From: Candidatus Giovannonibacteria bacterium
GTDB lineage: Bacteria > Patescibacteriota > Minisyncoccia > UBA11713 > 2-01-FULL-45-33
DNA: 64,000 nt
Assembly: GCA_016432405.1 (NCBI GenBank)
Contig: CP066687.1
Location: 411,040-475,039 of the forward strand
Reading direction: 5' to 3'
Shown: positions 6,546 through 50,678 of the stretch, piece by piece
Layout of the letters: each line of letters begins with the position of its first letter
Numbering within the stretch: the stretch's first letter is position 1
Notes under the pieces: generated by a model
Database searches by the model: none
Told to the model about the DNA's origin: nothing
The model's input: the letters and a program-made list of their open reading frames with translations, nothing else
Program-made: the position numbers and the translations under genes

Positions 6546-6822
6546 TGATTAAGAAGGGCGATAAGTAAGCGGCGATGTGAGTCAGCGCCTTGGCGGACGG
6601 CAAAACGCCGCCGCCCAAAAAAATCGTTAAAAACAACATAAGCGCGGCCCCTGAAATCCAGGCGACGGCCAGATTCGCAAGCCTGGTTGTAAAAGGAAGC
6701 GCGCTCAGCAAAGCCGCGGCGACCATTAAAGGAACCAAATAAAATCCAAAAGGGCCCGCCCCAAAACTTTCAAACACAATACCGTATAAAAACGCCGAAA
6801 TTAAAATCTTATAATCAATCAT
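6514..6822 (-). CDS. mreD: Rod shape-determining protein MreD-like (polytopic membrane protein)
   Basis: 102 aa and almost entirely hydrophobic helices. Sits between mreC and PBP2 in the canonical order. Confidence 0.6.
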   Translation of the reverse strand: MIDYKILISAFLYGIVFESFGAGPFGFYLVPLMVAAALLSALPFTTRLANLAVAWISGAALMLFLTIFLGGGVLPSAKALTHIAAYLSPFLIIAGIFYGAEG

Positions 6823-12185: not shown

Positions 12186-12790
12186 GGCGCCATATTTAAG
12201 TATTCTCCGATTAAACGTTTATTCGCCGTCGGGTCGGCGGAAAGAGCGCAGGCCCGGAGCGCTTTCTCCAATTTTAAAATATTGTCCCGGTTTAACCCGG
12301 CGCGCAGCGCATCCTCGCTGCTCATAAGCGATTTTTTGAGGCGGAGCTCAAACTCGTCTCCCCCGCTCCGCTCGGCGAACGCGGATTTTGAAAAAAATCT
12401 GAAGGCCGAAAAACGCGATTTAATCGTGAGAGGAATCGCCCGCGTGTTTTTTGTGGTCGCGATGATAATTGAGCCGGCCGGCGGCTCTTCAAGGATTTTC
12501 AGCATGGCCGGCGCGGCCTCGCGGCTTAGGTTTTCAATACTTTCCACCAGAAAAACGTTTTTGGGGCTCACAATCGGCCTTCGCGATGCCTTGGACTTAA
12601 GCGAACGCACGTCTTCTATCGTAATAGGAGCGGATTCAATTTTAAAAAAATCCGGACTTTTCTCGGCTTGTTCCCCCAAAAAACGGCCGAGCAAAAATTT
12701 TATCGCCTCGCTCTTCGCCCTCTCGTCGTTGCCGTAAAAGAGATACGCGTGATTTGGAAATTGGAAATTGGAAATTGGAAATTTCATCAT
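12182..12790 (-). CDS. holB: DNA polymerase III delta-prime-like subunit (short form)
   Basis: 202 aa. HAYLFYG P-loop-degenerate N-terminus, sensor-1-like ...NVFLVE..., and APAMLKILEEPP / TIKSRFSAFRF matching the delta-prime signature. The N-terminus contains a TTGGAAA x4 tandem repeat. Confidence 0.55.
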   Translation of the reverse strand: MMKFPISNFQFPNHAYLFYGNDERAKSEAIKFLLGRFLGEQAEKSPDFFKIESAPITIEDVRSLKSKASRRPIVSPKNVFLVESIENLSREAAPAMLKILEEPPAGSIIIATTKNTRAIPLTIKSRFSAFRFFSKSAFAERSGGDEFELRLKKSLMSSEDALRAGLNRDNILKLEKALRACALSADPTANKRLIGEYLNMAP

Positions 12791-13800
12791 CTTTTGGCGA
12801 TTATGCTTTTTTTATAGGACTCAAGATGCTCCATGGCGATGCCGGTTCCTTTGGCCACGCAGTAAAGCGCGTCTTTGGCCACCGCCGCCGGCACGCCGGT
12901 TGACCTTGAAACCAAAACGTTGAGGTTTCGGAGAAGCGACCCTCCGCCGGTCATCACTATTCCGTTTTCAATTATGTCGGAGGCAAGTTCGGGAGGAGTG
13001 TTGTGCAAAACCTGCTTTATGGCCTTCACTATATCCCGCAGCTCGCCGTCTATCGCTTTAACCACTTCGTTCGTGCGGATATCAATTGACCTCGGAAGTC
13101 CGGTGAGAAAATCCCTTCCTTTTATGGCCATCGTGAGCTCTTCCTCAATAGGAATCGCGGAGCCGATGCCGATTTTTATCTGCTCGGCGGTTGAGTCCCC
13201 TATCGCCAGATTAAATTGCCTTTTAATGTAGTCGGCGATTGCCTGGTCTATTTTATTGCCGGCGACTTTTACCGAAATTGAGCTTACTATCCCGCCCAAT
13301 GAAATCACCGCCGCGTCCGCCGTCCCTCCGCCGATATCCACCACCATATGCCCCTGGGGCTCGTGTATCGGAATGCCCGCGCCGATGGCGGCCAGCACCG
13401 GCTCTTTTACGACGTACGCCGATTTTGCTCCGGCCTTAACCGCCGCCTCAACCACTGACCTGCGTTCCGTTGAAGTCACGCCCGCGGGCACGGAAACCAA
13501 AACCTCCGGCTTGACGAGATTCCATCTGCCGGTCGTCTTGGAAATAAAATAGCGCAGCATCGCCTCCGTCACGCGGTAGTCCGCGATTACGCCGTCTTTC
13601 ATCGGCCGGTAAGCGACAATCGTCTCCGGCGTGCGGCCAATCATCACCTTGGCTTCGTTGCCCACGGCCAAGACGCGGTTTTCCGGGAGCGTCACCGCCA
13701 CAACCGAGGGCTCGTTTAACACTATTCCTTTCCCGGGAATATAAACCAGCGTGTTGGCCGTGCCCAAGTCAATTCCGATTTTTTTTATGAAAAAATTCAT
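12787..13800 (-). CDS. Second MreB/Mbl-like actin homolog
   Basis: 337 aa with motifs DLGTANTLVYIPG, VVDIGGGTAD, GIVMTGGGS. Paralogous to the gene at 7489-8541. Confidence 0.8.
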   Translation of the reverse strand: MNFFIKKIGIDLGTANTLVYIPGKGIVLNEPSVVAVTLPENRVLAVGNEAKVMIGRTPETIVAYRPMKDGVIADYRVTEAMLRYFISKTTGRWNLVKPEVLVSVPAGVTSTERRSVVEAAVKAGAKSAYVVKEPVLAAIGAGIPIHEPQGHMVVDIGGGTADAAVISLGGIVSSISVKVAGNKIDQAIADYIKRQFNLAIGDSTAEQIKIGIGSAIPIEEELTMAIKGRDFLTGLPRSIDIRTNEVVKAIDGELRDIVKAIKQVLHNTPPELASDIIENGIVMTGGGSLLRNLNVLVSRSTGVPAAVAKDALYCVAKGTGIAMEHLESYKKSIIAKR

Positions 13801-16841: not shown

Positions 16842-19800
16842 TTATTGAACCACCTCCACCGTCCTTACGGCTGTCGCGCTGTTTCCGGCGCTGTCGGTCG
16901 CGGAGTAAAGAATCGTGTGCGTGGTGGTGGTTGAGGTGTCCAGCGAAAGCCCGTCTCCTTGCGAAAGTGCCGGTCCCCCATTTAAAGAAGCAGTGTAACC
17001 GAGATTTGAATCAACGTTATCCGTGACGGTTACTCCCATATCCGCGTAACTCGCGCCCACGTTAATCGTCGCCGGGTTATTTCCCAAAATTGTGATTACC
17101 GGCGGGATAACATCGGGTGTTGAAGAAGAAACACCCGATGTTGAGGAGCCGGCGGCGCCGCACGCTCCTGCTTCCGATTTCAAAACCCCATTCTCCGAAA
17201 ACACGCAGACCGGCCCGCCGGTGGCGCGGTCATAAATTGTGAATCCCTGCGGCCCGGTTACGGTGAGTTTTTGCGTTTCAATTTCCTGAACAATCAATTT
17301 TCCGTTTTCATCTATACTCCACAATCCGGAGGCCGACAAAATCTTGCGGACGTTTATGATGTCGTTATTTTGCAAATCCAAGAGACCGGTCGTTCCCAAA
17401 GCAAGCCCTGAAATCTTCGCGTTCAATTCCTGAATCGCTTTTGCCAAAACCGCGGTCAGGTTCGCGTATTTAACATTGACCGGCGTAGAGGACGCGTCAA
17501 GCGTGACCAGCCGCGGGTCAATGCCGAAAACTTCTTCCGCGATTAAACCGACCTGTTCTCCCTTAACTCCGATGTCGTCATTATAAAGGAACGATACCGG
17601 GCGCAAATTTAATACCGTTTCAAGCGCTCCGGCGCCAAGCGAATTAATGTCGTGCTTGAAACGTTGCGAAGAACCCGTGCAGGCCGCGCCATCGCTATAT
17701 GTGACTTCCTTGTTCGCGGAGAGACAGAGAGCTCCGGCTCCGGCTCCGGCCGTAAGCCCGGAAAACGCCGCCGTCCCCGCAACCGACAAAGTCCTCCACG
17801 GCGTCGTGCTTGCGATGCCGAAATCTCCTCCGTTATTAATATATGATTTGTCGGTGCTCAAAACTGGATCGGAAACAATTTTAATCACAGTATCGCCAGC
17901 TTCATTAGTCATTGAAAAACTTGCTTGCTGATTACTGTCCATGCCGAGCTGATGACTAACTGAGCCGCTTGGTCTAACTATATTAACACCGAGAGGTCTT
18001 GGTGATGTTCCTAGACCTAACTGAATTTCAAGCGCGCTTTCACTTGTCGGCACACGGCCAATTCCTACTCTTTTGGTCACGCCGTCAACCGAGATAATTG
18101 GGGGGCCTACAGTTGATGAGGTTGCGATGCTCCACGCGTTAATTACTTGCGGAATTGTTGAGGTCGCGGATTTTTGATAGGAGAAAGTCAGCGCGGCCGC
18201 GGTGCTTGAAGAATAGGTGATGAGGTTGGAGTCAAGATAAGCGTTCCCCTGCACGGAAAGCAAACTTGCCGGACTCGTCGTCCCGATGCCGACGTTGCCG
18301 GTGGTTGCTGCAACAACCAAATGGTCTGCCACGCCACCTTCTCTTATGCCAAAGTTGGTATCTGAACTAGAGTTGCTAACATTGCGACCAATGAACCAAT
18401 CTGGCCCGTCGCCAGTATCAAAATACAAACTCACACTTGCCCCAGCGCCGGTGACCGTGTTGGAAAGTCGTATTTGTGCGGGATCAGTTGTGCCCGCGTC
18501 AATGTTTAATGAATAGGTCCCGGGGTTTGCCACCCCAATACCCACATTCCCCGTAAAATATCCATTTCCCGCAACTGAAAAGAGCGAAGCCGGACTCGTC
18601 GTCCCGATGCCGACGTTGCCGCCTGTTGTTATTACAAATTCATTACCTGTAAAATCAGCGTCCTCACTAATCTTAAAGGAATCCGAATCTGAATTATCTA
18701 TGCCTGCATACCATGAAATGACATCAGGCAATTGCCAACGCAATGTCGCATCCCCCGTCCCAGCTTGTTGAATTTTAATTCCCGCCGAACCAGTAAGGGC
18801 ATCATTATTTCTTACAACGAGAGACTGGTCTGGACTCGTCGTCCCAATGCCGACGTTGCCGCTTGTTTGCTGGACCACGAATTGGCTTGTGCCGATAGTG
18901 AAGCCACCTGTCCCGAATGTACTCGTCGCTGTGCCACTCACCGCGAGCGTTCCCGTCGCCGTAAGACCCGCCACAGAAAGATTGCTGGAGAACAGCCCGG
19001 CTCCATGCACCGAAAGCAAACTCCCCGGACTCGTCGTCCCGATGCCGACGTTGCCGTTATCAATTACACTCAAAACCTCCGTAATATTTACCAAGGCGGT
19101 ACTGGCATAACCAAGACTTATTCTAGAATTAGAGCCAGTAGAAAAATTTTCAATTCCTACACGAGTACTACCGCCAGCGTTCATCGCAATCCCATTCCCC
19201 GCGGCACCATTAGAGAAATAAATCTTTGATGCCGCTCCGCCAATTTCCACTTTAGTCGTAGGATTCGCTAACCCGATGCCGACATTGCCGCCATTAAGCA
19301 GAGTTAATACAGGCGGAGTTGAAGTGGCATACGCATCAGTTGATGTTCCCACATAGAGATTCCCTCCCATTGACGATAAGAGCCAATGTTTCAGGTTTGC
19401 TCCGGCAGAAGTATCGGAAAGCGCGAAAGAAGGCCTCGTCCCCGCCGCCTGCAGGAGCCAGTTCGGCGTCGTCGTCCCGATGCCGACGTTGCCACTGATT
19501 ATTGCTCCATTAGTTGGTGGAGTGGCTCCCCCGTCAGCGTAAGTTCCCACAGCTATGCCCTGATAGCCGACAGAAAGTGAGGGGGCTGTAACTCCATTAC
19601 TTCCGGTACCTTTAAGGTCTATTCGAACAGGACCCGAATCCGAAGCGCTGGCTCCGCTCTGTACAAACCGTATTTGTGCGTACCCGTCACCCTCACTAAA
19701 AAATAGATTATTAGCATTTACACCAAGAGCTCGTATCACACCGAGTTCGTCTCCACTGGCAGTCTGAGAAAGCGTGTCTACGCTTGTTCCAACAGATTTT

Positions 19801-22800
19801 CTGAAAGACAGAGTGCCACTATGAGTTAGAGTGGCGCTGTAAGCAGATATTGTTTGGACTGTATCGGCAGATGCTCCAGCCAGTTCTAGTAATGAACTCG
19901 GGCTAGCGTCCCCGATGCCGATTCTGCCGTTTTGATTTACTCCGCCAACCACAAATGACGGCGTTGAACTTCCGGTATTTGATATCACGAACGAATTTGT
20001 CTCCGTTCCCTGTTCAACCGACAACAACCCCCACGGACTCGTCGTCCCGATGCCGACGTTGCCGCCTTCTGCAATAGACATCCTTATGGCACTTGAGCCG
20101 CCGCCTATTGGGTCTGTATAAAAGTTCAATACATTATTGGTCTCGTCCCACTGAATGTAGGCGCGGTCCACGCCATTTTCATTGAAGCGGATATTTGAAC
20201 TCCCCTCCGCACCATCTAAAATCAATTTATCGGTGTTGGCCGAATTAAAGATATGCAAGGCGTTAGCCGGACTCATCGTCCCGATGCCGACGTTGCCGTT
20301 TTCCGCCACATACAAGCTGTTGGCGGTTGCTCCGCGATTTACAACAAAAGCGGTGTTGTTGCCAACAGTAAGCCCTCCAGAAATAGTGGAAGTGGCGGTG
20401 GTGGAAGTCGCGTTGAAAATAGGGATATTGAGAGTCCCGTAGCTTGTGATGCTTGAATTAAACAATCCTCCGCCCGCCACCGAAAGCAAAGCCCCCGGAC
20501 TCGTCGTCCCGATGCCGACGTTGCCTCCGCTTAACAATGTCATCACAATAGCATCATTGATAGCAAATTGAATTGGGTAAGTGCCAGTTGATTGAAGCAC
20601 ACTTGCGTATGCAGATGCTCCTGTTAGTAATCCTCCAGTAGTGCTCCAATTTTTACCCAACTCAAATGTACCGCCAGTATTTATAATATCGATATATGCA
20701 TAGTTTGTGCCTGTAGTTGATGTGATTTTCATCCTTCCAGTTTCACTTTGAATATCAAGTGGCAGTGTTGGATTCGTCGTCCCGATGCCGACGTTACCGC
20801 CGGATGTAGCCAGATACGTTGAGCCGGTGGTGGTTAATTGCGTCCCCGAAGCATTTCCAAAAGTTAGAAGCCCAGTAACATTCAGCGTTGAAGTCGCCGT
20901 TATCGCCCCGCCGAAGAATCCCGTGCCGGAGAAGTATCCGCTTCCCTGCACCGAGAGCAATGCCCCCGGACTCGTCGTCCCGATGCCGACGTTGCCGGCA
21001 GCATTTATCGTTATAGCCGGTGTTGTAGCTAACGCTCCGAGAGGCGCGGTATAGAACTTCAAACCAGCATCGTTGTTTGTGGCACTTTGGATAAAACCGC
21101 TTATCCGACCCATTGGTAAGACATCACTCCGCTGTTTGAAGTCTATGCTTATCTCGTCATTTGCAAGCATCTGGAGGTCGGAATATGACATACTGAGCAA
21201 AGTAATTTGTGTTGCGGCTCTATTTCCCCCTACCACATCTAATTTATACAAAGGCCCCGTCGTCCCGATGCCGACGTTGCCGCCATTAGTAACTATGAAA
21301 TTCGTTGCCGTTGAAGAGCCAACCACGAATGAAGGGACACCCGCGCCAAGAGCGTTCGGATTTACCGAAAGAAGCCCCCACGGCGAAGTTGATGCGATGC
21401 CGACGTTGCCGGTGGAGGTGACATTAAAAAGCGAAGAGTCAGATGAAGAAAGGACGCGGAAAAGGTCGGCGGATTGGCTGGTAACTCCCTTGATTGTTAA
21501 AGGAATGGCGGTGGTGGAAGTAGCTCCGATTGTGAGCACGGAAAGTCCGGAGTGAGTAGTGGTGCCGAAAGCGGCCTGTCCCGCGGCCGAGAAGACAAAT
21601 CTGGTTGTGGGCTCGCTGGCGCCATCCTGAAGCCGCAAAAGGTCTCCCGAAACGGTGGAGTTCCACATTGTGTATGCGGCGCCGGTAGTGGTGGCCAAAT
21701 GAGTAATTCTTCCCTTAAAAATATGGCTGTCGGCGTTGGGGGCGTCTCCCATTGTAAATTGATTTTCAACAGTGAAGTTGGATGCGGTGGTGGAAGCCAA
21801 AGTTGTGCCGCCAACGGTGGTCAGTCCATTTGCAAAAACGTCCCCGTCAGCATCAACAAGGAAGCGAACCGCTCCGCCGACAGCTATGCCCAGAAGATTG
21901 GTATCCGCCGCCGCCGAAGCCGGATTGATGACCACAACCGAGTCCGTGACCGCGGAGTTGGCAACGCCAACAGCCCAGGTGCCGAAAGTGTGCGAAACCG
22001 TCGGGCTTTTTGTGACTAAAAGCTGTTCGGTGAGAGTCGTGGTGGAGTTTACATTCATTGAAGCGCCGGAGACGTTAAGCCCGCCGCTCGCAAGTATGTC
22101 TCCCGAAACCGAAAAAGTTGCGCTGGGAGTCGTGGTGCCTATGCCAATTCTGTAGTTTTTTGTGTCAAAAGTAAGAAAAGGAGTGACGGAAGTGGAAGTG
22201 GCGAAAGAGAAAGCGTTGATTAAGGAAGAGGCGATGGTGGTGGTGGCCTGGTTGAAGAAAGCGAGATTTCCGTAAAGAGTCATGTCCCCCGTAAGTTGGA
22301 GGGTGGAAGAAGCGTAAACGGCGCTGGCGAAGTCGGAGCGGCCGGAGACGGTAAGAGCGCCGATGGAAGCGGAAGTTGAGTTAAGCGAGGTTGAGGTCAG
22401 AGAAGCCAAGCCCGATACCGCTCCGGCTGAAGTTACGTTCCAGACGTTTGAGGTTATGGATACGTTTTTGCCTTCAGCCCCAAGAGTCACGTTTCCTGAA
22501 GCGTTTAAATTGCCGCCGGTGGAAATTCCGTTGGAGAAGTCCCCGAAAGAAGCCGAGACGCCGGAGCCGGTCTGGGGAGGAGACGAAGCGTAAGGGCCGG
22601 GGATTGAAGTCGTGAGAAAGACAACCGGATTTTGGACCTGGTTGGAAGGAAGCCGTTTTTCCAAAGCGGCAAGAGAAAGCTGGACCTGTGCCAAGACGGC
22701 TTGGTTGAGAGAAGAGAGGCGCTGGTCAAGCTCTGTTTGGGAGATGCCTGCCTTGCCGGCAGGCAGGCCGGAGACGACGCGTTCAACTACTCCGACGCTC

Positions 22801-23987
22801 GGCTTTGCCGAGGTCGGAGCCCCGACCAAAGCGTCGGGGCGGGATGGAGGTGTGGAAGTTGATTCTCCAAATGTGATAATTTTACTTCCATCTTGAGGTA
22901 AATTGGGAGCCGGAGGAGTTTCCGCGGCTTCAGGCGGTTTAACCGAGAAAAAATCCATTGCCACCAGCTTCAGGTCGCCCCCCAAAGACGCTATGTATCC
23001 CCGCCAGCCGAGGACATTGTTTATAAATCTGTCTTTAATATCCGAGAGAGAGAGTTTGGCGTCTTTAAAAGTAAAGGGCAAAGAAAAGGTAGCTCCGACG
23101 TCAGGAAGTCGGAGTCCCGACCAAAGCGTCGGGGGAAGCGAGAATTCGGGCAAAGCAAGAGCCAGCGAGGGGAGTTTGATTTCCGGCCAAGCGAAAAGTT
23201 CTGTGAGAGGTTGGAAATTTGGAAGTTGAAAAGTCGGAAGTTTGAAAGTAAGTTGAGGCAGTTTTGGTTTTGGTAAAGTTAATTTTGGAAGTTTGATTTC
23301 GGGCAGGGAGAGGGCTAGAGAGGCTCGGTCTTTGATGCTTTGAAAAACGTTTCCGAGCACTGCTTTAATGTTAACCTCACCTCCCAACCCCCTCTCCTTA
23401 CGAAGGAGAGGGGGCGGAGGGGGTGAGGTAAGGGTCTCAAAAAATCCGGCTGCAAATTTTTTCGCAGAGACAATAGAATTCCCAATTTCATCCGCGACGA
23501 CGAAAATCTCACCTGCCAACTCTTTCACGGAGACATTAATATTTTCGGTTGCATCCGCAATAGAATTTTTGATTGCGCCCGCGTTATAAAAAATCAGCAC
23601 GGCAATCAGTACTGACGAGAGAGAAGCCGCTCCCAGCGACCATTGCTTCAGAGAAAATTTCGGAAACCGAATTTTTGGAAATTGAAAGTATTCTTTCTCT
23701 TTCTCCCCCAAAATCGCCTTGTCCCACTCATCTGTTGTATGAAAGATTTCCGGCTTTGTAAGGATAACTTGCGGCTCTGTTTTCTCTTGCGTCCGCAAGA
23801 TGGATTTTTTGTAATCCAAAATAGATTTTTCGGAAACCATCCAATCGGTGCCGAATTTTTTTCCTTTTACTTTTTCCTCGCGGCAAAGCTGTCCGACATA
23901 GATGCGTGTATAGCCGCAAAGAGCCGCGGCCTCGGAAGCCGTGATATATTTTTCCCCTTCTAAGATAATTTCACGAGAATCTTTCAT
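16842..23987 (-). CDS. Giant (2381 aa) membrane-anchored fibre-like surface protein: N-terminal HTH, TM, Pro-rich linker, GNVGIGTTSP repeats, C-terminal intramolecular-chaperone (peptidase S74-like) domain, Ig-like tail
   Basis: Single uninterrupted ORF. The N-terminal ITASEAAALCGYTRIYVGQLCREEKV is an HTH. A TM segment lies at about aa 110-135. The LPKLTLPKPKLPQLTFKLPTF Pro-rich repeats follow. There are more than 12 G(G)NVGIGTTSPxxLLSV modules. The C-terminus (SSQRFKHDINSL...LRPVSFLY...GLIAEEV) matches the auto-cleaving tailspike chaperone domain. The final approximately 120 aa (PVITILGNNPATINVGASYADMGVTVTDNVD) resemble a bacterial Ig-like/DUF5011-type domain. Confidence 0.8.
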   Translation of the reverse strand: MKDSREIILEGEKYITASEAAALCGYTRIYVGQLCREEKVKGKKFGTDWMVSEKSILDYKKSILRTQEKTEPQVILTKPEIFHTTDEWDKAILGEKEKEYFQFPKIRFPKFSLKQWSLGAASLSSVLIAVLIFYNAGAIKNSIADATENINVSVKELAGEIFVVADEIGNSIVSAKKFAAGFFETLTSPPPPPLLRKERGLGGEVNIKAVLGNVFQSIKDRASLALSLPEIKLPKLTLPKPKLPQLTFKLPTFQLPNFQPLTELFAWPEIKLPSLALALPEFSLPPTLWSGLRLPDVGATFSLPFTFKDAKLSLSDIKDRFINNVLGWRGYIASLGGDLKLVAMDFFSVKPPEAAETPPAPNLPQDGSKIITFGESTSTPPSRPDALVGAPTSAKPSVGVVERVVSGLPAGKAGISQTELDQRLSSLNQAVLAQVQLSLAALEKRLPSNQVQNPVVFLTTSIPGPYASSPPQTGSGVSASFGDFSNGISTGGNLNASGNVTLGAEGKNVSITSNVWNVTSAGAVSGLASLTSTSLNSTSASIGALTVSGRSDFASAVYASSTLQLTGDMTLYGNLAFFNQATTTIASSLINAFSFATSTSVTPFLTFDTKNYRIGIGTTTPSATFSVSGDILASGGLNVSGASMNVNSTTTLTEQLLVTKSPTVSHTFGTWAVGVANSAVTDSVVVINPASAAADTNLLGIAVGGAVRFLVDADGDVFANGLTTVGGTTLASTTASNFTVENQFTMGDAPNADSHIFKGRITHLATTTGAAYTMWNSTVSGDLLRLQDGASEPTTRFVFSAAGQAAFGTTTHSGLSVLTIGATSTTAIPLTIKGVTSQSADLFRVLSSSDSSLFNVTSTGNVGIASTSPWGLLSVNPNALGAGVPSFVVGSSTATNFIVTNGGNVGIGTTGPLYKLDVVGGNRAATQITLLSMSYSDLQMLANDEISIDFKQRSDVLPMGRISGFIQSATNNDAGLKFYTAPLGALATTPAITINAAGNVGIGTTSPGALLSVQGSGYFSGTGFFGGAITATSTLNVTGLLTFGNASGTQLTTTGSTYLATSGGNVGIGTTNPTLPLDIQSETGRMKITSTTGTNYAYIDIINTGGTFELGKNWSTTGGLLTGASAYASVLQSTGTYPIQFAINDAIVMTLLSGGNVGIGTTSPGALLSVAGGGLFNSSITSYGTLNIPIFNATSTTATSTISGGLTVGNNTAFVVNRGATANSLYVAENGNVGIGTMSPANALHIFNSANTDKLILDGAEGSSNIRFNENGVDRAYIQWDETNNVLNFYTDPIGGGSSAIRMSIAEGGNVGIGTTSPWGLLSVEQGTETNSFVISNTGSSTPSFVVGGVNQNGRIGIGDASPSSLLELAGASADTVQTISAYSATLTHSGTLSFRKSVGTSVDTLSQTASGDELGVIRALGVNANNLFFSEGDGYAQIRFVQSGASASDSGPVRIDLKGTGSNGVTAPSLSVGYQGIAVGTYADGGATPPTNGAIISGNVGIGTTTPNWLLQAAGTRPSFALSDTSAGANLKHWLLSSMGGNLYVGTSTDAYATSTPPVLTLLNGGNVGIGLANPTTKVEIGGAASKIYFSNGAAGNGIAMNAGGSTRVGIENFSTGSNSRISLGYASTALVNITEVLSVIDNGNVGIGTTSPGSLLSVHGAGLFSSNLSVAGLTATGTLAVSGTATSTFGTGGFTIGTSQFVVQQTSGNVGIGTTSPDQSLVVRNNDALTGSAGIKIQQAGTGDATLRWQLPDVISWYAGIDNSDSDSFKISEDADFTGNEFVITTGGNVGIGTTSPASLFSVAGNGYFTGNVGIGVANPGTYSLNIDAGTTDPAQIRLSNTVTGAGASVSLYFDTGDGPDWFIGRNVSNSSSDTNFGIREGGVADHLVVAATTGNVGIGTTSPASLLSVQGNAYLDSNLITYSSSTAAALTFSYQKSATSTIPQVINAWSIATSSTVGPPIISVDGVTKRVGIGRVPTSESALEIQLGLGTSPRPLGVNIVRPSGSVSHQLGMDSNQQASFSMTNEAGDTVIKIVSDPVLSTDKSYINNGGDFGIASTTPWRTLSVAGTAAFSGLTAGAGAGALCLSANKEVTYSDGAACTGSSQRFKHDINSLGAGALETVLNLRPVSFLYNDDIGVKGEQVGLIAEEVFGIDPRLVTLDASSTPVNVKYANLTAVLAKAIQELNAKISGLALGTTGLLDLQNNDIINVRKILSASGLWSIDENGKLIVQEIETQKLTVTGPQGFTIYDRATGGPVCVFSENGVLKSEAGACGAAGSSTSGVSSSTPDVIPPVITILGNNPATINVGASYADMGVTVTDNVDSNLGYTASLNGGPALSQGDGLSLDTSTTTTHTILYSATDSAGNSATAVRTVEVVQ
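18276..21420. repeat. Intragenic dispersed repeat, about 24-29 nt conserved between copies (GGACTCGTCGTCCCGATGCCGACGTTGCC and variants), at least 12 copies
   Basis: Copies sit at about 18276, 18590, 18830, 19030, 19460, 20033, 20268, 20500, 20773, 20960, 21250 and 21385. They are spaced irregularly at 130-600 nt. On the minus strand each encodes GNVGIGTTSP. Confidence 0.8.
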
Positions 23988-26398: not shown

Positions 26399-27277
26399 TC
26401 ATCTCCGGGGCTTAAGAACTTTTTGGCTTTCCTGAACAGCGTCCACGTCGGCTTTGTGGCCGGAGTAGAATGAAATAACCCGCGCCGCGAGGAGCCCAAT
26501 AGGATTAACCACGCTAAGCGCCCCCAAAAGATCTCCTAAACGGTGCAATACCGTGGCGCGCAAGGTTTCGTCAGCCCCGAGTTCCCGCAGCCAAGTTATA
26601 TTTTGGTGATGCGGCCACCAAATCTTAGACGCCAGACGGGAAAGATGATAAGTCCAGTTCGGCCAGCCCAGAGCGCAGGCTTCCAACGCGATTTCCAACA
26701 TCCTTGCGTCAGCGGGAAGATTTAATTCCAACAATTCCGTGCCGATGCCGTGGTAGTGGCAAGTTATGGATATGTCCAGCTCTGGGGATTCCTTGGGCTG
26801 AATTTCGGTGTAGCCAATTTTGGTCTCGCGTTTTATCGGCCGCCCGACGGTAATCCATTCCATCTCGCTTCCCAAATCGGAATGGCAGGCAATTTTTATG
26901 TGCCGCCAGAGTTCGTATGGCCGGCCATAATATGGAGGCCAGGCAGTGGACTGGATTATTATCCGTTCCAGACCCAGCCAGCGCAGAACCCCGATATGCT
27001 CAAAAACTTCCAGCTTAGCCCCGTGATATTCAAGCCGGGTACGCCTGAACTTATGATGAAGCAAATCCGCAGTAATCCTAACAGGCTCCATCCTTGGATC
27101 ATAAAGCCAAAACCAGCCCTTTTTGTCGGTCGGCAAAAACTTAATCCAGGCATCTCTTCCCCAATAATCTTTGCCCCAGACAACAATTTCCCGGCCAAGC
27201 CGGATAGGGTGCAGTTTTCTTTCTTCTATCTCCTCTATCTGCTCAATAATCCAACTTTCTCGCTCTCCGTAAGCCAT
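26399..27277 (-). CDS. Divergent LpxC-like (UDP-3-O-acyl-GlcNAc deacetylase fold) protein, function uncertain
   Basis: 292 aa. The C-terminal DETLRATVLHRLGDLLG...FYSGHKADVD aligns with E. coli LpxC DEFVRHKMLDAIGDLFMCG...YKSGHALNN. FEH is present upstream. The H238/D242 equivalents appear shifted (A...H). Confidence 0.4.
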   Translation of the reverse strand: MAYGERESWIIEQIEEIEERKLHPIRLGREIVVWGKDYWGRDAWIKFLPTDKKGWFWLYDPRMEPVRITADLLHHKFRRTRLEYHGAKLEVFEHIGVLRWLGLERIIIQSTAWPPYYGRPYELWRHIKIACHSDLGSEMEWITVGRPIKRETKIGYTEIQPKESPELDISITCHYHGIGTELLELNLPADARMLEIALEACALGWPNWTYHLSRLASKIWWPHHQNITWLRELGADETLRATVLHRLGDLLGALSVVNPIGLLAARVISFYSGHKADVDAVQESQKVLKPRR

Positions 27278-28853: not shown

Positions 28854-28870
28854 CCGAAACTTAGTTTCGG
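28854..28870. repeat. REP family C hairpin CCGAAAC-TTAG-TTTCGG
   Basis: Copies at 28854-28870 (between pcm and RAYT3), 29526-29542 (other side of RAYT3) and 29327-29344 (inside RAYT3, in-frame DLNLVSDI). Confidence 0.75.
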
Positions 28871-29517
28871 TCATCTAATGTATAATTATCATTTCTGGCG
28901 GTTTCAATAAAACGTCTCACCTCTCTTCTATCAGAATCAAAATAATTGAGCAGGAAATCTGTCTTCAACAACTCCCCCCACCTGTTTTCGCCTATGTAAT
29001 CCTGGAAGCTGGACCAAGGATATTTATGCTCCCGTCTTTTCCAACCCTTGATATCTTTGGGATTAAGATGCGCATATGCCAGTGCTCGCAACAAATAATT
29101 ATCGCCGTTTAAATATTTAGCATCAAAAGTTCTTTCAAAAACATGCCCGCGTCTTTTATACTTCAAATTAAAGTATTTTGCATAGCTAACAAGTAGTTTG
29201 TGCATAAATAAAGAAACGTTGCCGTCTTCTTTTTCACGCAAAATTAAATGAAAGTGATTCGGCATAAAACAAAAGCCGACTATATCTATTAAATTATCTC
29301 CGATATCTATCTTTCTATTCCTTATGTCCGAAACTAAGTTTAGGTCAGGAAAGCGGTCCAGGTGTGAAATATCGCGTTTTCCATTAGCCGCAAATAAAGT
29401 AGTTAAAAATCGTTTGTAGTCGCGGTCGGTACCAAACAAAGCCACATCGCCAATGGCGTGAGAATAAACATGATAATGTTCCCCTTCCGTAAAAGCGTAC
29501 TTACGCATAATGCTCAT
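28861..29517 (-). CDS. REP-associated tyrosine transposase (RAYT), copy 3
   Basis: 218 aa. HuH motif PNHFHLIL. N-terminal EGEHYHVYSH and catalytic region YAHLNP. Flanked by REP-C hairpins. Confidence 0.75.
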   Translation of the reverse strand: MSIMRKYAFTEGEHYHVYSHAIGDVALFGTDRDYKRFLTTLFAANGKRDISHLDRFPDLNLVSDIRNRKIDIGDNLIDIVGFCFMPNHFHLILREKEDGNVSLFMHKLLVSYAKYFNLKYKRRGHVFERTFDAKYLNGDNYLLRALAYAHLNPKDIKGWKRREHKYPWSSFQDYIGENRWGELLKTDFLLNYFDSDRREVRRFIETARNDNYTLDDRN

Positions 29518-29613
29518 ATTATTGTCTGAAACTTAGTTTCGGTCAAGTTTCAATTAAATCATCCACAGGCGCCTATTTTCAATGTTAACACCCCGTGGTA
29601 AAATTAGAATAAC

Positions 29614-29865
29614 GTGGAGATTCAAGATGTTAAAACAAAACTGGTTTTGGCGGCCATCCTGCTTGTAGCAGTCGCGGCCGGAGCTTGGTATTGGTTTGCG
29701 GGAAGGCCCAAGCCGATTAAAACCCCTGAAGATATTGTTGAGGCAGTGACGAACCCGAATCTGGAGGTGCCCTCAAATCCGGTTCAAAATAAAGTGCCGG
29801 AGCTAAATCCGATTGACCGGGCAAACCCATTTAAAGACGCTTATAAGAATCCTTTCGCGGAGTAA
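29614..29865 (+). CDS. Small single-TM protein (hypothetical)
   Basis: 83 aa. TM LVLAAILLVAVAAGAWYWFA, then a Pro/Asn-rich tail. Immediately upstream of the Cys-rich secreted protein. Confidence 0.35.
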   Translation: MEIQDVKTKLVLAAILLVAVAAGAWYWFAGRPKPIKTPEDIVEAVTNPNLEVPSNPVQNKVPELNPIDRANPFKDAYKNPFAE

Positions 29866-29873
29866 AATAAAAT

Positions 29874-31853
29874 ATGAAAAAAGCGATAATTTTGGCAGGA
29901 TTATTAATCGCCGCGATGCAGGTAAGCGCCGGCGGCGGCAATGCTTCCTTTTCGCTCCAAAAAGACAAGAGCACCGACCTTTTTATATTGAATATGCGCG
30001 ACTCCCAAGGCATCCGCAGTTTCGCCCTTGTTTTCCCGACAGACAAGCTCCCCTACAGCGGCGATCTGAACGGGTGCCCCCAAAGCCGCAAAATAGACAA
30101 TGTTTTGATAAACGAAATCTCCGATTTTAAGCCGATGATGAAAGCGGTAATCGTTGACTGCCGCGGAGAGGAAACGGAATTTGAAATAACCGCGCCGGTA
30201 GGCGGAGTGGCCCAGGTTAAAAAAGTTGAGCCGCCTCCACCCCCGCCGCCTCCGCCACCGCCTCCGCCGCCTTCTCCCCTCCCGACGCCCGCCGAAGGCG
30301 GGGTCGGGACTCCGACTACAGAAGTTTCTAAAACAAACGTTGGAGCAGCCACGCCGGCAACTTTAGAATACCCGATTAAAGAACTTGGCGGGTGCGAGAG
30401 TCAGGAGGCCTGCAAAACTTATTGCGACGCCCCGGCGAACCTTGAGCGCTGCATCGCCTTCGCCGAAACAAACGGGCTTTTAACGAAAAGTGAAATTGAA
30501 CGCGGCAAAAAATTCGCCGCGATAGTCAAATCCGGCGGCGGGCCAGGAGGATGCAAAACCGAGGCATCCTGCAAGGATTACTGCAACGACGTGGGGCGGC
30601 TTGACGAGTGCGTCGCTTTCGCGGAAAATAGCGGCCTGGTTTCCGGCGCGGAGCTGGAAGAGATGAAAAAAATTCAAAACGTCGTTAAGCGCGGGACTAA
30701 ATTCCCCGGCAACTGCACCAACCGCGCCGCCTGCGAGCTTTACTGCAAGACACCGGAGCACGCGGACGAATGCGTTGCTTTCGCCAAAGAAGCCGGATTC
30801 ATGAGCGAAGAGGAATCCAGAGAAATGGAGAAAATTCTTCCCTTAATGAGAAGCGGCCAGATGCCCGGCGGATGCACATCAAAAGAATTATGCGAGGCGT
30901 ACTGCGAAGACGAGGGGCATTTTGACGAATGCGTCGCTTTCGCCCAAAAGGCGGGATTGGTGTCAGAAAAAGAGCTTGAGATAATGCGAAAAACCGGCGG
31001 CAAGGGCCCGGGCGGCTGCCGCGGAAGGGCATGCCAGACGTTTTGCGAAAATCCGGCAAACCAGCAGGCCTGTTTTGAATTCGGCAAACAGTACGGCCTT
31101 ATCTCGGAAGAGGACTTAAGCAGAATGGAAGAAGGTAAGCGGCTCATCCGCGAACAGCTTGAAAGCGGGCCTCCGGAAGTTCAGGAATGCCTTAAGTCGG
31201 TGGTGGACGTGACCGTTTTAGAATCAGAGGGTTTCGCGGGCGGGCCGGAATTGGGCGAAAAGATGAAAGAGTGTTTCGAAAAAATGATTCCAGAAGGCAT
31301 GGAAGGGAAATTTGAGTTTGGCGCAAACGGAGAATTTAAAGGCCCGGGCGATTGCAAGTCGCGCGAGGAGTGCGAGACATATTGCACATCAAATCCGGAA
31401 GCATGCGGCGAGAGCGGTGACCGCGGCGGCGAGGAATGTGTAAAACAAGGGGGCAGTTGGAACGGCGAAACTTGTAATTTCCCCGGCAGTGATCGCGGCA
31501 CAGAAGAATGCGCCAAGCAGGGAGGAACCTGGGACGGAACAAATTGTAATTACCCCCACATTGAACGCGGCGGCGAGGAATGTGTAAAACAAGGGGGCAG
31601 TTGGGACGGGGCGAACTGCGATTTTTCTAACTCACAGCGACCCCCGCAACAGCCGCCATCACAAGAGCAATACCAGCAACAATATCAACAGCAATACCAA
31701 CAGCAGTATCAGGAAGAGGTTCGGAAGCAATGCGAATCCCAGGGCGGAGTTTGGGACGGCGCTCAATGCAAAGCCCCCACAAATTTCCAGCAACCGCCAG
31801 CGGAACTCTCGCCCGGCTCGGCGCTGGACGCTCTGTTGCGGCTGGTCAGGTAA
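29874..31853 (+). CDS. Secreted modular cysteine-rich repeat protein (novel)
   Basis: 659 aa. Signal peptide MKKAIILAGLLIAAMQVSA. A 14-residue poly-Pro run. Five modules of about 46 aa (GGC-x5-C-x2-YC-x8-EC-x-AFA-x3-GL-S-x2-E). Four EC-x-KQGG-x-W(D/N)G-x-NC modules. A QQYQ x4 tail. Confidence 0.7.
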   Translation: MKKAIILAGLLIAAMQVSAGGGNASFSLQKDKSTDLFILNMRDSQGIRSFALVFPTDKLPYSGDLNGCPQSRKIDNVLINEISDFKPMMKAVIVDCRGEETEFEITAPVGGVAQVKKVEPPPPPPPPPPPPPPSPLPTPAEGGVGTPTTEVSKTNVGAATPATLEYPIKELGGCESQEACKTYCDAPANLERCIAFAETNGLLTKSEIERGKKFAAIVKSGGGPGGCKTEASCKDYCNDVGRLDECVAFAENSGLVSGAELEEMKKIQNVVKRGTKFPGNCTNRAACELYCKTPEHADECVAFAKEAGFMSEEESREMEKILPLMRSGQMPGGCTSKELCEAYCEDEGHFDECVAFAQKAGLVSEKELEIMRKTGGKGPGGCRGRACQTFCENPANQQACFEFGKQYGLISEEDLSRMEEGKRLIREQLESGPPEVQECLKSVVDVTVLESEGFAGGPELGEKMKECFEKMIPEGMEGKFEFGANGEFKGPGDCKSREECETYCTSNPEACGESGDRGGEECVKQGGSWNGETCNFPGSDRGTEECAKQGGTWDGTNCNYPHIERGGEECVKQGGSWDGANCDFSNSQRPPQQPPSQEQYQQQYQQQYQQQYQEEVRKQCESQGGVWDGAQCKAPTNFQQPPAELSPGSALDALLRLVR

Positions 31854-31870: not shown

Positions 31871-32029
31871 ATGTCTCAAGACAATCTGATAAAATTGCAG
31901 TGCCAAAGCTGCAAAAGAATCGGCTATTGGTCAAGCAAAAATAAGAAAACAGTGGAACGCAAAATTGAGCTAAGTAAGTTCTGCAAATGGTGTCGGAAAC
32001 ATACCACACACAAAGAAGGTAAAAAGTAA
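31871..32029 (+). CDS. rpmG: 50S ribosomal protein L33
   Basis: 52 aa MSQDNLIKLQCQSCKRIGYWSSKNKKTVERKIELSKFCKWCRKHTTHKEGKK. Four Cys zinc ribbon plus the HTxHKE tail typical of L33. Not in the ORF track because it is under 60 aa. Confidence 0.8.
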   Translation: MSQDNLIKLQCQSCKRIGYWSSKNKKTVERKIELSKFCKWCRKHTTHKEGKK

Positions 32030-32135: not shown

Positions 32136-32921
32136 CTAGTTCTGTTCGATTAGTAGTACACGAATAGGTATGCCGAGTGTATTGGTAGTTTTATTAAATA
32201 TTGCCGTCACAAAAACTTTTAGTTGAGAACTCAAACCTTGCCTAGACCAAGCACGGGCATAAGCTACACAATTTGGCTCCAAAACAACATCTTTAAAACC
32301 AGGCAAGCTTCCAAATCCCTCAATCAAATCTCTATTAATAGCCAACACACGTCCCTCACGAAGAATAATCACCTTATTACTCCCTTCGTAAGCAATACAA
32401 ATATTTTCCGTTTGATTTGGGGCATTAGCACCCATTTTAATTTCAAGAGACTTTAATAAACCTAGACCCTTATCAGAAACCAAAAAAGACAACGATCTAG
32501 GTTGCCCCCCTCCGATAACTAAGGGGATTGAAGGGAAAATATATACAGAGTAGATAATAATCCAAATTATTAAAAACAAAAATACAAATTCCAACCACAA
32601 CGATTTAAACATTCGTTCTCCTATTTTTTTAAAAAACAAACCAAAATCATTGGCATGACAATAAATATTGATAAAAAAATAACTCAGAAGCTTTCCTAAT
32701 ACTTTTAAAATAGAGAAAAGAATTATAGTTAGGAAAAAGAAAAAAAATCCAGTTATAATAAATCTTGCTTTAATAATTTCGTCTTCAATAAAACCCAGAG
32801 TATAAAGGTAAACATTCCAAATCACGAAACCAAATACTAAAAGTGTTATCGATATGATAGAGAAATAAAGTACCAAGTTTTTACTTTCAAGTATTTTAAC
32901 TATTAAATTAAAAACTCTCAT
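32136..32921 (-). CDS. Polytopic membrane protein in a low-GC gene (hypothetical, probably acquired)
   Basis: 261 aa. Several TM helices, then a soluble C-terminal domain. About 30% GC versus about 50% background. Its start codon abuts the 3' end of tRNA-Trp. Confidence 0.55.
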   Translation of the reverse strand: MRVFNLIVKILESKNLVLYFSIISITLLVFGFVIWNVYLYTLGFIEDEIIKARFIITGFFFFFLTIILFSILKVLGKLLSYFFINIYCHANDFGLFFKKIGERMFKSLWLEFVFLFLIIWIIIYSVYIFPSIPLVIGGGQPRSLSFLVSDKGLGLLKSLEIKMGANAPNQTENICIAYEGSNKVIILREGRVLAINRDLIEGFGSLPGFKDVVLEPNCVAYARAWSRQGLSSQLKVFVTAIFNKTTNTLGIPIRVLLIEQN

Positions 32922-48763: not shown

Positions 48764-50545
48764 TCAATCAATAACCTGCCAATTATAACTATCCTTTTTA
48801 GTTCGGTATAATTTGCATTTATCCAACTCTAAAGCATCGAGACCTAATTGAGCGCATTGGAGTTCTGGATTGAAATCAGATGAAAAAATAGTGCTTCGTT
48901 TAATTGTAATTGTGCTACCAAAAGTTGGCAGAAAGTTAGATAATACTTTATCGCTTATTGCTTGGTTTATGTTATCTGTGTATTCATTTACCTCTACCCA
49001 TACATAATTTTTTGGAAAGGAACGGTATAAATTACAGGCAAATAAATCTTTGTCAGTAAAACCCAACATAGAACAGCTTAATGATGGATTGAGGTCCACT
49101 CTAACCTTAACATCTGTACGAATCTGCACTTCACTTCCTACCGGCGGGGCAGGCTGACCTTGATAATCAATTTTATTTTCTCCTTGTTTGAGCTTTGGGA
49201 TTATACTTTTGATAAAGTTTATTGGTACAGCGAAGTTAAGCCCTACATCTATTTTAATGCCCTGAATTTTGGGCCCTATACCTGCTACGTGTAATCCAAT
49301 AAGTTTTCCGTGTTCACTAACCCACCCACCTCCACTACTGCCTGGTTGTGTTTTTGCGTCTGTTTGTAAGAAGGTAAAATTATTGCCGGGCTGCTTGCCA
49401 CCAATTATCCCAGTCGAAAGCACTGCGCTTGGAAGGTCTAGGGGGTGTCCAAATACTAAAACTTTATCACCAATCATTATGTGGTCTGAATCACCAAACA
49501 CCACAATGGGCAAATTATTTTTACTTATTCGAACCAGCGCCATATCATTAAACTCATCTCTTCCTATAATTTTTCCTATGTGTGTTTCGCCGTTGCTTAA
49601 ATAAACTTGCACACTGTCAAAACCTTTCACAACATGCGCAGCTGTTAATATCAAACCATCAGATTCAATTGTTACTCCGCTTCCTACGCTCTCTGAATCC
49701 GTAGTAAATGTTTTAATCCGTGTTATTGCAGGTATAATCCTATTAGCTATTTCTGTAACAGTGAGTACACCATTTTCTGTTTTGATTTTATCTTCAGATT
49801 TTGGAATACTAATAATATTTCCATACCGATCAACAACCACACCAGTAGAAAGAATGAAGTTTCCTGACTCCTGTGAATTTTGCTGAGTTGTTTTTGCCCC
49901 CGCAGTTGATTGGCTTTGTATTTTATTCTCCAACTCTTCCCGCTTTTTTCGTTCTTGCAACAACAAATTACGAAGTTCATCTAACTCTTTTTTTGTTAAG
50001 TTCACTTCATTCGATCCCATTTCTGACCCGCCGCCTTCAGATTTATTTAACTCGGCGATTTTGTTGAGTGCTTCTTCTTGGCCTTTTTTGCTGGCTTCAA
50101 GAGCTTTCGTTATCGCCTCTTTGGCTTCGTCGGGGACTTTAGACAAAACATCAGCCAAAATTTCTTGGTGCTTTGAGGTATTATTCGCGATTAAATTAAG
50201 CAAACTTTCGGCTTTGGTTTCGTCTTTAACTTTTTTTGACGCCTCCGCCGCGAGAGCGATGTTTGCTTCATAGCCCGAAATCGCCGTTTTAACCGCGTCT
50301 GAATTTTTATCTCCGGCAACCGCCTCGGCTTCGGTGAGCCGCTTTTCGGCGTATTTAAGCGCCTTCTCCGCTTTTTTCTCGGGATTGAAAGTGAAAAAGA
50401 GATTTATCTTTTCAAAAGTCGTAACAAAACCGTATAAAAAACTGCCGGGCTTAATTCCGGTGCTTTGGGCGGCCGAAACAGAAAGAGGAGCTACGAAAAC
50501 AGCCGTTAGAAGCAAAAAGGAAACAACAAAAGAGAGCTTTTTCAT
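48764..50545 (-). CDS. Secreted trypsin-like (S1/HtrA-type) serine protease with an N-terminal helical domain and a twin-Cys C-terminal repeat. Start refined to MKKLSFVV.
   Basis: Signal peptide. Catalytic context TAAHVV...D...TQPGSSGGG. C-terminal repeats Cx2LGxxxxxLxxCxLYR x2. Low GC. Confidence 0.7.
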   Translation of the reverse strand: MKKLSFVVSFLLLTAVFVAPLSVSAAQSTGIKPGSFLYGFVTTFEKINLFFTFNPEKKAEKALKYAEKRLTEAEAVAGDKNSDAVKTAISGYEANIALAAEASKKVKDETKAESLLNLIANNTSKHQEILADVLSKVPDEAKEAITKALEASKKGQEEALNKIAELNKSEGGGSEMGSNEVNLTKKELDELRNLLLQERKKREELENKIQSQSTAGAKTTQQNSQESGNFILSTGVVVDRYGNIISIPKSEDKIKTENGVLTVTEIANRIIPAITRIKTFTTDSESVGSGVTIESDGLILTAAHVVKGFDSVQVYLSNGETHIGKIIGRDEFNDMALVRISKNNLPIVVFGDSDHIMIGDKVLVFGHPLDLPSAVLSTGIIGGKQPGNNFTFLQTDAKTQPGSSGGGWVSEHGKLIGLHVAGIGPKIQGIKIDVGLNFAVPINFIKSIIPKLKQGENKIDYQGQPAPPVGSEVQIRTDVKVRVDLNPSLSCSMLGFTDKDLFACNLYRSFPKNYVWVEVNEYTDNINQAISDKVLSNFLPTFGSTITIKRSTIFSSDFNPELQCAQLGLDALELDKCKLYRTKKDSYNWQVID

Positions 50546-50605
50546 TGGCTTAATTATACGCGATTTATTGCTTTTTCGCAATACGCGGTGTAAAATTAAA
50601 AAATT

Positions 50606-50678
50606 GCCGGAGTAGCTCAATGGCAGAGCAACGGTTTTGTAAACCGTAGGTTGGAGGTTCAAATCCTCTCTCCGGCTT
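50606..50678 (+). tRNA. tRNA-Thr (anticodon TGT)
   Basis: Acceptor GCCGGAG/CTCCGGC. D-arm TAGCTCAATGGCAGAGCA. Anticodon stem ACGGT/ACCGT with loop TTTGTAA. T-arm GGAGGTTCAAATCCTCT. CCA not encoded. Confidence 0.8.

Follow-up and report, generated by a model that had tools for sequence, protein, structure and literature searches.

A cysteine-rich helical-repeat protein and its small upstream partner as a candidate surface-stalk or attachment unit of Parcubacteria

We analyzed a stretch of 64,000 nucleotides from a Candidatus Giovannonibacteria bacterium (contig CP066687.1, positions 411,040 to 475,039; referred to below as the window and numbered from its first letter), in which an open reading frame (ORF) at 29874-31853 encodes a large protein made of tandem cysteine-rich helical modules. 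A small gene immediately upstream encodes a putative membrane protein that accompanies this gene across related genomes. The reading we tentatively favor, at somewhat less than an even chance, is that the large protein is one half of a conserved, Parcubacteria-specific two-gene unit for making a stalk or attachment protein at the cell surface.

Modules of the large protein

The features of the large gene are given below with the residue numbers of its product.

29874-31853, + strand: the large gene, a single ORF of 659 residues with 36 cysteines
29874-29930, + strand: Sec-type signal peptide, residues 1-19, MKKAIILAGLLIAAMQVSA followed by GGG
29934-30227, + strand: beta-sandwich, immunoglobulin (Ig)-like domain, residues 21-118, after the signal peptide and ahead of the poly-Pro tract, with the cysteine pair C68/C96
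30228-30368, + strand: Pro-rich disordered linker, residues 119-165, including P14-SPLP
30381-31157, + strand: five tandem A modules, residues 170-428, each with three helices and 4 cysteines
31158-31340, + strand: helical cap/linker, residues 429-489, with the cysteine pair C439/C467 (PPEV..CL ... KM..CF), part of the family consensus
31341-31430, + strand: truncated sixth A-like half module, residues 490-519, GPGDC-x5-C-x3-C-x6-C
31413-31628, + strand: three tandem 24-residue B modules with 13-residue Cys-closed loops, C-x-KQGG-x-W-D/N-G-x-x-C
31629-31730, + strand: Q/Y-rich tract with QQYQ periodicity, predicted by AlphaFold2 to form a long helix at residues 597-622
31707-31778, + strand: fourth, more divergent B module, residues 612-635, with 50-51% nucleotide identity to B1-B3
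31806-31850, + strand: short amphipathic C-terminal tail, LSPGSALDALLRLVR

Each of the five A modules matched the family hidden Markov model (HMM) with an expectation value (E) of 1e-18 to 1e-22, far beyond chance. Across 641 A-module instances, taken from the large protein and 120 homologues (121 proteins), the consensus was GPGGCKSKEECEAYCEDPENIEECLAFAEKAGLISEEELEEAKKFLELLKS, with four cysteines that were 100% conserved and with YC, EC and AFA flanks that were frequent and variable. The modules of the large protein are about 50 residues in size and recur with a period of 48-54 residues. Modules A1-A4 shared the spacing C-x5-C-x3-C-x8-C, while A5 read C-x4-C-x3-C-x8-C, with FC for YC, AC for EC and EFG for AFA, and A1 carried RC where the others have EC. 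An initial annotation, made from the letters of the DNA and their translations, had described five modules of about 46 residues with an invariant C-x5-C-x2-YC-x8-EC-xAFA spacing; its count of five stands, the length of 46 residues does not, and the spacing and flanks of A5 together with the RC of A1 show that the pattern is not invariant. The eight-cysteine double module that it proposed likewise gave way to units of four (A) and two (B) cysteines.

In the AlphaFold2 models, each A module folded into three helices, with the first cysteine (C1) in the GPGG loop preceding helix 1, C2 and C3 one turn apart on the short helix 1, and C4 on helix 2. A His or Asn was conserved four residues ahead of C4. 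The fragment holding all five modules was modeled with a predicted local distance difference test (pLDDT) score of 92.6 and a predicted template-modeling score of 0.75, and the model indicates that the five modules form a rigid helical array.

Database searches returned no relative of this module. Nothing in the large protein rose above threshold in Pfam-A, NCBIfam or PHROGs; the whole protein matched PDB sequences through its poly-Pro tract only, and a profile of 57 A-module sequences reached a best E of 0.55 against the same set. Foldseek comparison of the helical fragment with the PDB gave a best E of 0.95, at a probability of <=0.10 and a template-modeling (TM) score of <=0.18, and comparison with the viral structures of BFVD gave no match at E <=0.001. 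No EGF, Kazal, WAP or other curated Cys-rich Pfam domain was found in the protein, even at E <=10; the Pfam, NCBIfam, PDB-sequence and Foldseek searches thus agree with the initial annotation that the cysteine arrangement is not that of EGF, Kazal or WAP domains. As far as the models allow us to say, the A module looks like a helical repeat of a new, disulfide-braced kind.

Several candidate identities were rejected. For the AtDEF-like defensins (PF25052), where at least 25 bits are needed, a single-module consensus scored 14.1 bits (E 0.06) and the protein itself did not match; an artificial concatenate of three modules scored 26.3 bits, through Cys-pattern stretches of 23-27 residues only. 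The matches to Terminase_4, Nif11, SHOCT, CBP4, PRIMA1, BimA, AtDEF-like and MVL were sub-threshold or reflected low complexity or Cys pattern, and PG_binding_1, a peptidoglycan-binding three-helix domain, gave no Pfam match and was not among the Foldseek matches.

The N-terminus of the large protein reads MKK, a hydrophobic core, and VSA followed by GGG, and by the AXA rule the signal peptide would be cut after VSA; a hydrophobic N-terminal region was found in 230 of 242 family members. The mature protein has a mass of ~69 kDa and is acidic (pI 4.7), and its 36 cysteines all fall into even-numbered groups. The ORF, the Sec signal and the modules bear out the earlier description of a secreted, modular, Cys-rich protein, but the poly-Pro tract does not directly follow the signal peptide as had been claimed, since a conserved beta-sandwich of ~100 residues (residues 21-118) intervenes. 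AlphaFold2 gave this domain 8 strands at pLDDT 87-97, and a Foldseek search of the PDB with the whole model returned only weak Ig, FN3 and LAIR1-like matches (E ~0.04-0.1); the domain occurred in 89 of 121 homologues. The 14-Pro tract, followed by SPLP, occupies residues 120-137, and pLDDT fell below 50 at residues 132-156 of the linker. An LPXTG motif is absent from the sequence, and Pfam and NCBIfam scans combined with sequence inspection detected no membrane anchor or known CTERM signal in the protein itself.

Downstream of the A modules, the cap helices were placed at residues 434-443 and 458-471 by AlphaFold2. The half module matched the A-module HMM at E 1e-4 to 5e-5, and the family consensus keeps it as GPGGCKS.EEC..YC; it had gone unmentioned in the initial annotation, as had the cysteine pairs C68/C96 and C439/C467. 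The B motif (C-x-[KS]-Q-G-G-x-W-[DN]-G-x-x-C) occurs four times, at residues 522-534, 546-558, 570-582 and 620-632, in keeping with the four B-type modules first counted. Three of these had been called near-identical in DNA (31430-31625), which the measured identity among the tandem B1-B3 modules, 62-78% in DNA and 58-67% in protein, does not support. The B modules were modeled at pLDDT ~73-83 and occurred in 22 of 121 homologues, in 0-5 copies. The order and number of B1-B3 were the same in orthologues, and because their order is conserved we take the tandem B modules to be old repeats. When the B-module region was used as the query, one homologue of 104 residues was returned, a result that carries no information on B modules outside the family.

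The QQYQ tail seen earlier was confirmed as a tract with a period of 12 nucleotides in 3.7 copies, and a similar Q/Y tract was present in 45 of 242 family members. The C-terminus of the large protein, SPGSALDALLRLVR, qualifies as a hydrophobic/amphipathic tail by the definition used for the family; short tails of this kind were found in 145 of 242 members compared with 2 of 242 control windows, and usually end in K or R. The C-terminal 172 residues had no NCBIfam or Pfam match, the CTERM sorting models included.

We infer that the cysteines of the large protein form intramodule disulfides, because their counts are even and invariant and because some of them stand as isolated pairs, one in the Ig-like domain, one in the cap and one in each B loop. 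Disulfides are the only sensible reading of these pairs, those of the B loops closing 13 residues, because a Cys4 metal site is impossible there. Within the A module, the model makes it likely that C2-C4 pair across the hairpin of helix 1 and helix 2 and that C1-C3 tie the GPGG loop to helix 1. For forming disulfides outside the cytoplasm, bacteria of the candidate phyla radiation (CPR) have genes for VKOR and an MdbA-like oxidoreductase (bioRxiv 10.1101/335083); no Dsb or VKOR gene was found among the 40 window ORFs scanned.

We consider it extremely improbable that the A-module cysteines bind a metal ion or cluster (Cys4) instead, which would make the protein an extracellular metal store or redox array. 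Such a site could draw on the four 100% invariant cysteines of each module, on the conserved His/Asn four residues ahead of C4, and on the anoxic groundwater inhabited by many of the bacteria that carry the family, where by our own reasoning disulfides would be less favored. However, cofactor loading does not fit Sec export of an unfolded chain, the same protein holds isolated Cys pairs in its Ig-like domain, cap and B loops, the 641 modules contain neither CxxC knuckles nor Cys-to-His changes, and no Pfam metal-binding family was matched.

The small partner gene and the breadth of the family

Two features precede the large gene.

29576-29604, + strand: promoter-like site, TTTTCA-17-TAAAAT with TG, just 5' of the small gene, from a consensus scan only
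29614-29865, + strand: partner gene, 83 residues, with 8 nucleotides from its stop to the ATG of the large gene

The partner protein has a single hydrophobic helix at its N-terminus, followed by an aromatic YW belt and, after a linker, by an NPx-repeat tail ending in NPFKDAYKNPFAE. It matched the partner HMM at E 1.5e-44 and had no match in Pfam, NCBIfam or PHROGs. No terminator-like site was detected on the + strand from the small gene to the end of the large gene. Among related loci, which were collected with patterns from an A4-A5 sub-alignment, a partner homologue lay immediately upstream and on the same strand of 74 of 91 family genes (85 loci; 72 non-redundant pairs), and the exceptions were mostly contig ends or split ORFs. 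The gap between the two genes had a median of 5 nucleotides, with 16 of the 72 pairs overlapping. When all flanking ORFs were clustered, the partner was the only conserved neighbor, being present at 63 loci compared with at most 9 for the next family. To judge by this gene order, the partner gene, which the initial annotation had not noticed, is genetically coupled to the large gene.

The C-terminal NPF tail of the partner was invariant, its NPx motifs were periodic, and the YW belt was conserved right after the helix. Partners accompanied large proteins both with and without the Ig-like domain, so the candidate contact, if the two proteins touch, is the helical array or the tail. All 13 of the 13 partners that end in NPLR were paired with Ig-containing large proteins, and by this comparison the tail type of the partner co-varies with the subtype of the large protein. 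In two Niyogibacteria loci (L009 912-5760 and L034 2203-6887), the pair was tandemly duplicated as a unit, in the order small-large-small-large, which places short and long versions of the large protein side by side. A type IV pilin identity of the small protein was rejected, as it has no G/FTLIE-type prepilin motif.

The composition of the small protein also bears on whether the pair could be a peptide ligand and its receptor, with the small protein cleaved and its ~50-residue NPF peptide bound by the secreted repeat protein for signaling, sequestration or chaperoning. We regard this as distinctly unlikely. Although AXA-like residues (AGA/W) follow the hydrophobic core of the small protein, its NPx motifs are periodic, and the solenoid-like array has TPR, Rap, AimR and importin-alpha as its weak, non-significant best Foldseek matches, the conserved YW belt after the helix is typical of membrane-interface anchoring and the peptide-binder matches have a probability of <=0.1. 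The clustering of flanking ORFs revealed no conserved signaling component nearby.

The large protein had been presented as novel; it is no isolated case and belongs to a family of ~1,700 clusters (50% identity) that is widespread across Parcubacteria. A word-indexed search returned more than 1,000 homologues, all of them 'hypothetical' and, where named, from Parcubacteria, while phmmer, run exhaustively on the helical region, gave 1,695 clusters at 50% identity with E <=1e-3, and 893 with E <=1e-30. Two short peptide patterns alone retrieved 143 genomes from a set of species-representative genomes, covering at least 14 named Parcubacteria lineages: Giovannoni-, Harrison-, Niyogi-, Yanofsky-, Wildermuth-, Lloyd- and Kaiserbacteria as well as Nomura-, Lipton-, Nealson-, Jorgensen-, Sung-, Taga- and Brennerbacteria. 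Going by these matches, nearly all occurrences of the A-module family are in Parcubacteria. The cassette was also seen in metagenome-assembled genomes labeled Aenigmatarchaeota, Woesearchaeota, Methylomirabilis and Gammaproteobacteria (L036, L063, L019, L041 and L059); the members with archaeal or Proteobacteria labels are probably mis-binned Parcubacteria contigs, with horizontal transfer as the alternative.

The framework of the family is at least four tandem A modules of the form GPGG-C-x5-C-x3-C-x8-C-x-FA, to which the large protein conforms with five full modules and one half module; each of the 120 homologues listed has 4-12 A modules. The N-terminal two thirds of the family proteins are highly conserved, with 40-60% identity across many lineages, and the C-terminal third varies. 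A LamG/ConA-like C-terminal domain was present in 24 of 121 homologues and a Kazal domain, confined to the C-terminal region, in a few of them (e.g. P0038). A further 17 of 121 (e.g. P0028, P0041 and P0048) carried an unannotated terminal domain of ~30 residues with four cysteines (C..FA.VP.C.YVG.PDSQNY..CKQCYPDK), which sometimes precedes a hydrophobic tail. A scan of viral contigs found no family member, and a phage origin was dropped on that account. We found no description of the A-module family in the literature, Kuroda 2024 included.

The closest known counterparts are the 'hypothetical' proteins of this family, among them A3I24_04445 (Ca. Harrisonbacteria), HYY86_01990 and A3G49_00715 (Ca. 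Sungbacteria), together with the orthologue in RIFCSPHIGHO2_01_FULL_45_24. They share with the large protein the signal peptide, an Ig-like domain that may be present or absent, the A modules, the cap, half modules, the Q/Y tract, the tail and the upstream partner. By this comparison nothing of substance sets the large protein apart within this unnamed family of Parcubacteria, of which it is a typical member; its C-terminus carries B modules, as in 22 of 121 homologues.

This conservation bears on the suggestion that the protein is an adhesin or an effector. A surface or attachment role remains plausible, whereas the fact that the gene is conserved as part of the core speaks against a variable effector; the presence/absence polymorphism that had been raised as a check was not seen for the gene itself among its closest relatives, while the RAYT transposase and the C-terminal accessory modules vary. 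In our estimate it is very improbable that the protein is released freely to act on a host cell as an effector, toxin or inhibitor. In favor of this are its secretion, its richness in cysteine, the Kazal protease-inhibitor domains of some relatives and the presumed symbiotic or parasitic life of Parcubacteria. However, the 40-60% identity of the N-terminal two thirds over many lineages, the syntenic position without presence/absence variation in the closest relatives, the absence of the family from viral contigs and the lack of a toxin or enzyme domain in Pfam, NCBIfam and PHROGs all speak against an effector, which would moreover leave the membrane-protein partner unexplained.

A candidate surface-stalk or attachment unit

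The reading of a stalk or attachment unit has its footing, based on sequence evidence, in the ORF with its export signal and modules, in how widespread the family is, in gene pairing and synteny and in a confident helical model; signal-peptide cleavage, disulfides and their pairing, docking, surface retention and an attachment or structural role are what we infer beyond these. The large protein would be exported by Sec, lose its signal peptide and fold oxidatively outside the cytoplasm, where its 36 cysteines would give 18 intradomain disulfides, two of them in each A module. The product would be an acidic, rigid array of three-helix modules behind an Ig-like domain on a poly-Pro spacer. The co-translated partner of ~80 residues would be held in the membrane by its single helix, and its extended extracellular NPx/NPF tail would dock on the helical-repeat array, as a linear peptide does on a solenoid, thereby tethering the large protein to the cell. 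Retention by the partner is probable because the large protein itself lacks an anchor. The proposal that the array binds a periodic peptide follows the logic of alpha-solenoid peptide binders. The C-terminal half, which varies among lineages, could then serve ligand or glycan binding or self-association. The protein studied here would use its Trp/Gly-rich disulfide loops together with the Q/Y helix and the amphipathic tail, and relatives their LamG lectin-like or Kazal domains.

Some observations weigh against this reading. The conserved amphipathic tail at the C-terminus could itself be an anchor or an oligomerization element. The number of NP motifs correlates only weakly with the number of modules (rho 0.32, not corrected for phylogeny), and the small residues that follow the partner helix (AGA/W) leave room for a signal peptide that is cut off, in which case the helix would be no anchor.

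The tail and the Q/Y helix could alternatively drive polymerization, with the protein forming a self-assembling envelope lattice similar to a surface layer (S-layer), possibly with intermolecular disulfides, and with ligand binding as a secondary role. A lattice seems unlikely to us. The gene is core, single-copy and syntenic, the protein is acidic (pI 4.7), its modules make a rigid array, and the C-terminal tail and Q/Y tract are conserved; in addition, Luef and colleagues are said to have reported S-layers on CPR cells in 2015. On the other hand, Pfam and NCBIfam gave no SLH or other known S-layer anchoring domain, and a C-terminal half so highly variable, with lectin-like and Kazal inserts, fits a display scaffold better than a lattice subunit.

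The stalk or attachment unit can also be put in a bolder form, which we hold to be rather doubtful: the NPF membrane protein and the disulfide-stapled helical-repeat protein would together be an unrecognized envelope apparatus that defines Parcubacteria, with a new extracellular alpha-repeat fold, a new way of anchoring by a membrane peptide whose periodic NPF motifs thread along the solenoid, and a role as the main host-attachment stalk with interchangeable heads (LamG, Kazal and Trp-loop modules).

Genomic context and comparison with known systems

The window is a housekeeping chromosomal region, with genes for MraW, GreA, aminoacyl-tRNA synthetases, PBP2, MreB/C, RseP, RRF and MurA as well as TrmD, YceG, PCMT, L33, ClpB, HtrA, SOD, NifU and NifS, and an HMM scan found the family locus once in these 64 kb. 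In the closest genome, Ca. Giovannonibacteria RIFCSPHIGHO2_01_FULL_45_24, the orthologue is 85% identical and the gene order is as in the window: TrmD, YceG, PCMT, small gene, large gene, M10 peptidase. Three further genes bear on the context of the pair.

31871-32029, + strand: rpmG (ribosomal protein L33), 17 nucleotides 3' of the large gene, Pfam E 2.6e-17
28861-29517, - strand: IS200-like Y1 transposase (Y1_Tnp, RAYT-like), Pfam E 5e-6
9826-10497, - strand: second Y1_Tnp gene, Pfam E 9e-7

The rpmG gene is possibly co-transcribed with the large gene; no + strand terminator-like site lies between the two, and rpmG is not among the conserved neighbors of family genes. The initial annotation had placed the large gene downstream of a RAYT. 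A Y1 homologue is indeed nearby, but it lies on the opposite strand, with the 83-residue partner gene in between, and the linkage is not conserved: Y1 transposases are not among the recurrent neighbors of family genes, and none lies between PCMT and the small gene in the syntenic Giovannonibacteria loci L005 and L006. Because these syntenic relatives lack Y1_Tnp, we take its adjacency to be a window-specific insertion with no functional link; on this comparison, the copy beside the large gene is an insertion polymorphism.

Other ORFs in the window drew our attention. The product of a 2,381-residue ORF at 16842-23987 (- strand), with a Peptidase_S74 domain (endosialidase intramolecular chaperone) at residues ~2106-2161 and a C-terminal bacterial surface Ig-like domain, looks like a chromosomal, tail-fiber-like, self-cleaving surface fiber. 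A 292-residue ORF at 26399-27277 (- strand) gave a sub-threshold LpxC-like match (25.5 bits vs a cutoff of 27), which is odd for a lineage thought to have no outer membrane, and in L006 the syntenic gap lacks this ORF. A 261-residue multi-pass membrane ORF without a Pfam match, at 32136-32921 (- strand) between rpmG and the M10 peptidase, is apparently absent from the matching interval of ~300 nucleotides in L006. Two MreB paralogues within 10 kb (7489-8541 and 12787-13800), MreC (6819-7520) and a PBP2-type transpeptidase (4830-6545), all on the - strand, together amount by annotation to a complete rod-shape module, here in an ultra-small bacterium. A 632-residue DUF5667-trypsin-like protease at 48764-50662 (- strand) and a 479-residue protein with a Kre9/KNH-like Ig domain at 53411-54850 (- strand) are further candidates for envelope or secreted proteins.

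Parcubacteria are among the most abundant uncultured bacteria of groundwater and sediments; how they attach to hosts and build their envelopes is largely unknown, and uncharacterized secreted proteins abound in CPR genomes. What makes the large protein a tractable and worthwhile subject is the breadth of its family, the coupling of the two genes and the lack of a fold match. A recognizable two-gene unit offers a concrete target for cryo-electron tomography, proteomics, heterologous expression and structural biology, and the pair could be used as a marker in comparative genomics, since host range may be reflected in the variable heads at the C-terminus. The pair would also fill a gap in domain databases, where ~1,700 protein clusters stand without annotation at present.

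Among known proteins, the alpha-solenoids (TPR, ARM/importin-alpha, PPR and Rap/AimR) resemble the large protein in arranging tandem helical repeats in a rigid array, but the large protein differs in having three helices per unit of ~50 residues, four cysteines per unit and an extracellular location. Foldseek (probability <=0.10, TM <=0.18, E >=0.95) gave no evidence of homology to, or of the same fold as, TPR, ARM, HEAT or PPR proteins. The twin CX9C/CHCH proteins, the twin CX3C small Tims and the plant alpha-hairpinins (CX3C-Xn-CX3C) are like the A module in their short helices, in two disulfides, which are predicted for the A module, and in a CX3C on one helix. The A module departs from all of these in its C-x5-C-x3-C-x8-C spacing, a single cysteine on helix 2, another in the GPGG loop and a third helix, and also in being tandem, bacterial and extracellular, with no sequence match to them.

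Cys-rich extracellular proteins of Peribacteria, of ~1,650 residues, encoded in a 14-gene cluster and weakly similar to Myxococcus Cys-rich repeats and FG-GAP (PeerJ 2016, PMC4736985), are likewise secreted CPR proteins with variable C-terminal regions and a proposed role in attachment; unlike the large protein, they have no such helical module, and no NPF partner has been described for them (PMC4736985). The LPXTG-anchored stalk adhesins of Gram-positive bacteria resemble it in combining a signal peptide and a Pro-rich spacer with Ig-like domains, repeats and binding modules that vary, whereas the large protein has no LPXTG/sortase or CTERM signal and would be anchored through a separate small membrane protein. 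Stalk-displayed Gram-positive surface proteins are its closest counterparts in function, and alpha-solenoid peptide binders its closest counterparts in architecture. By these likenesses, the large protein rates as a surface repeat protein of a known sort, but one built from a previously undescribed module and joined by a previously undescribed partner.

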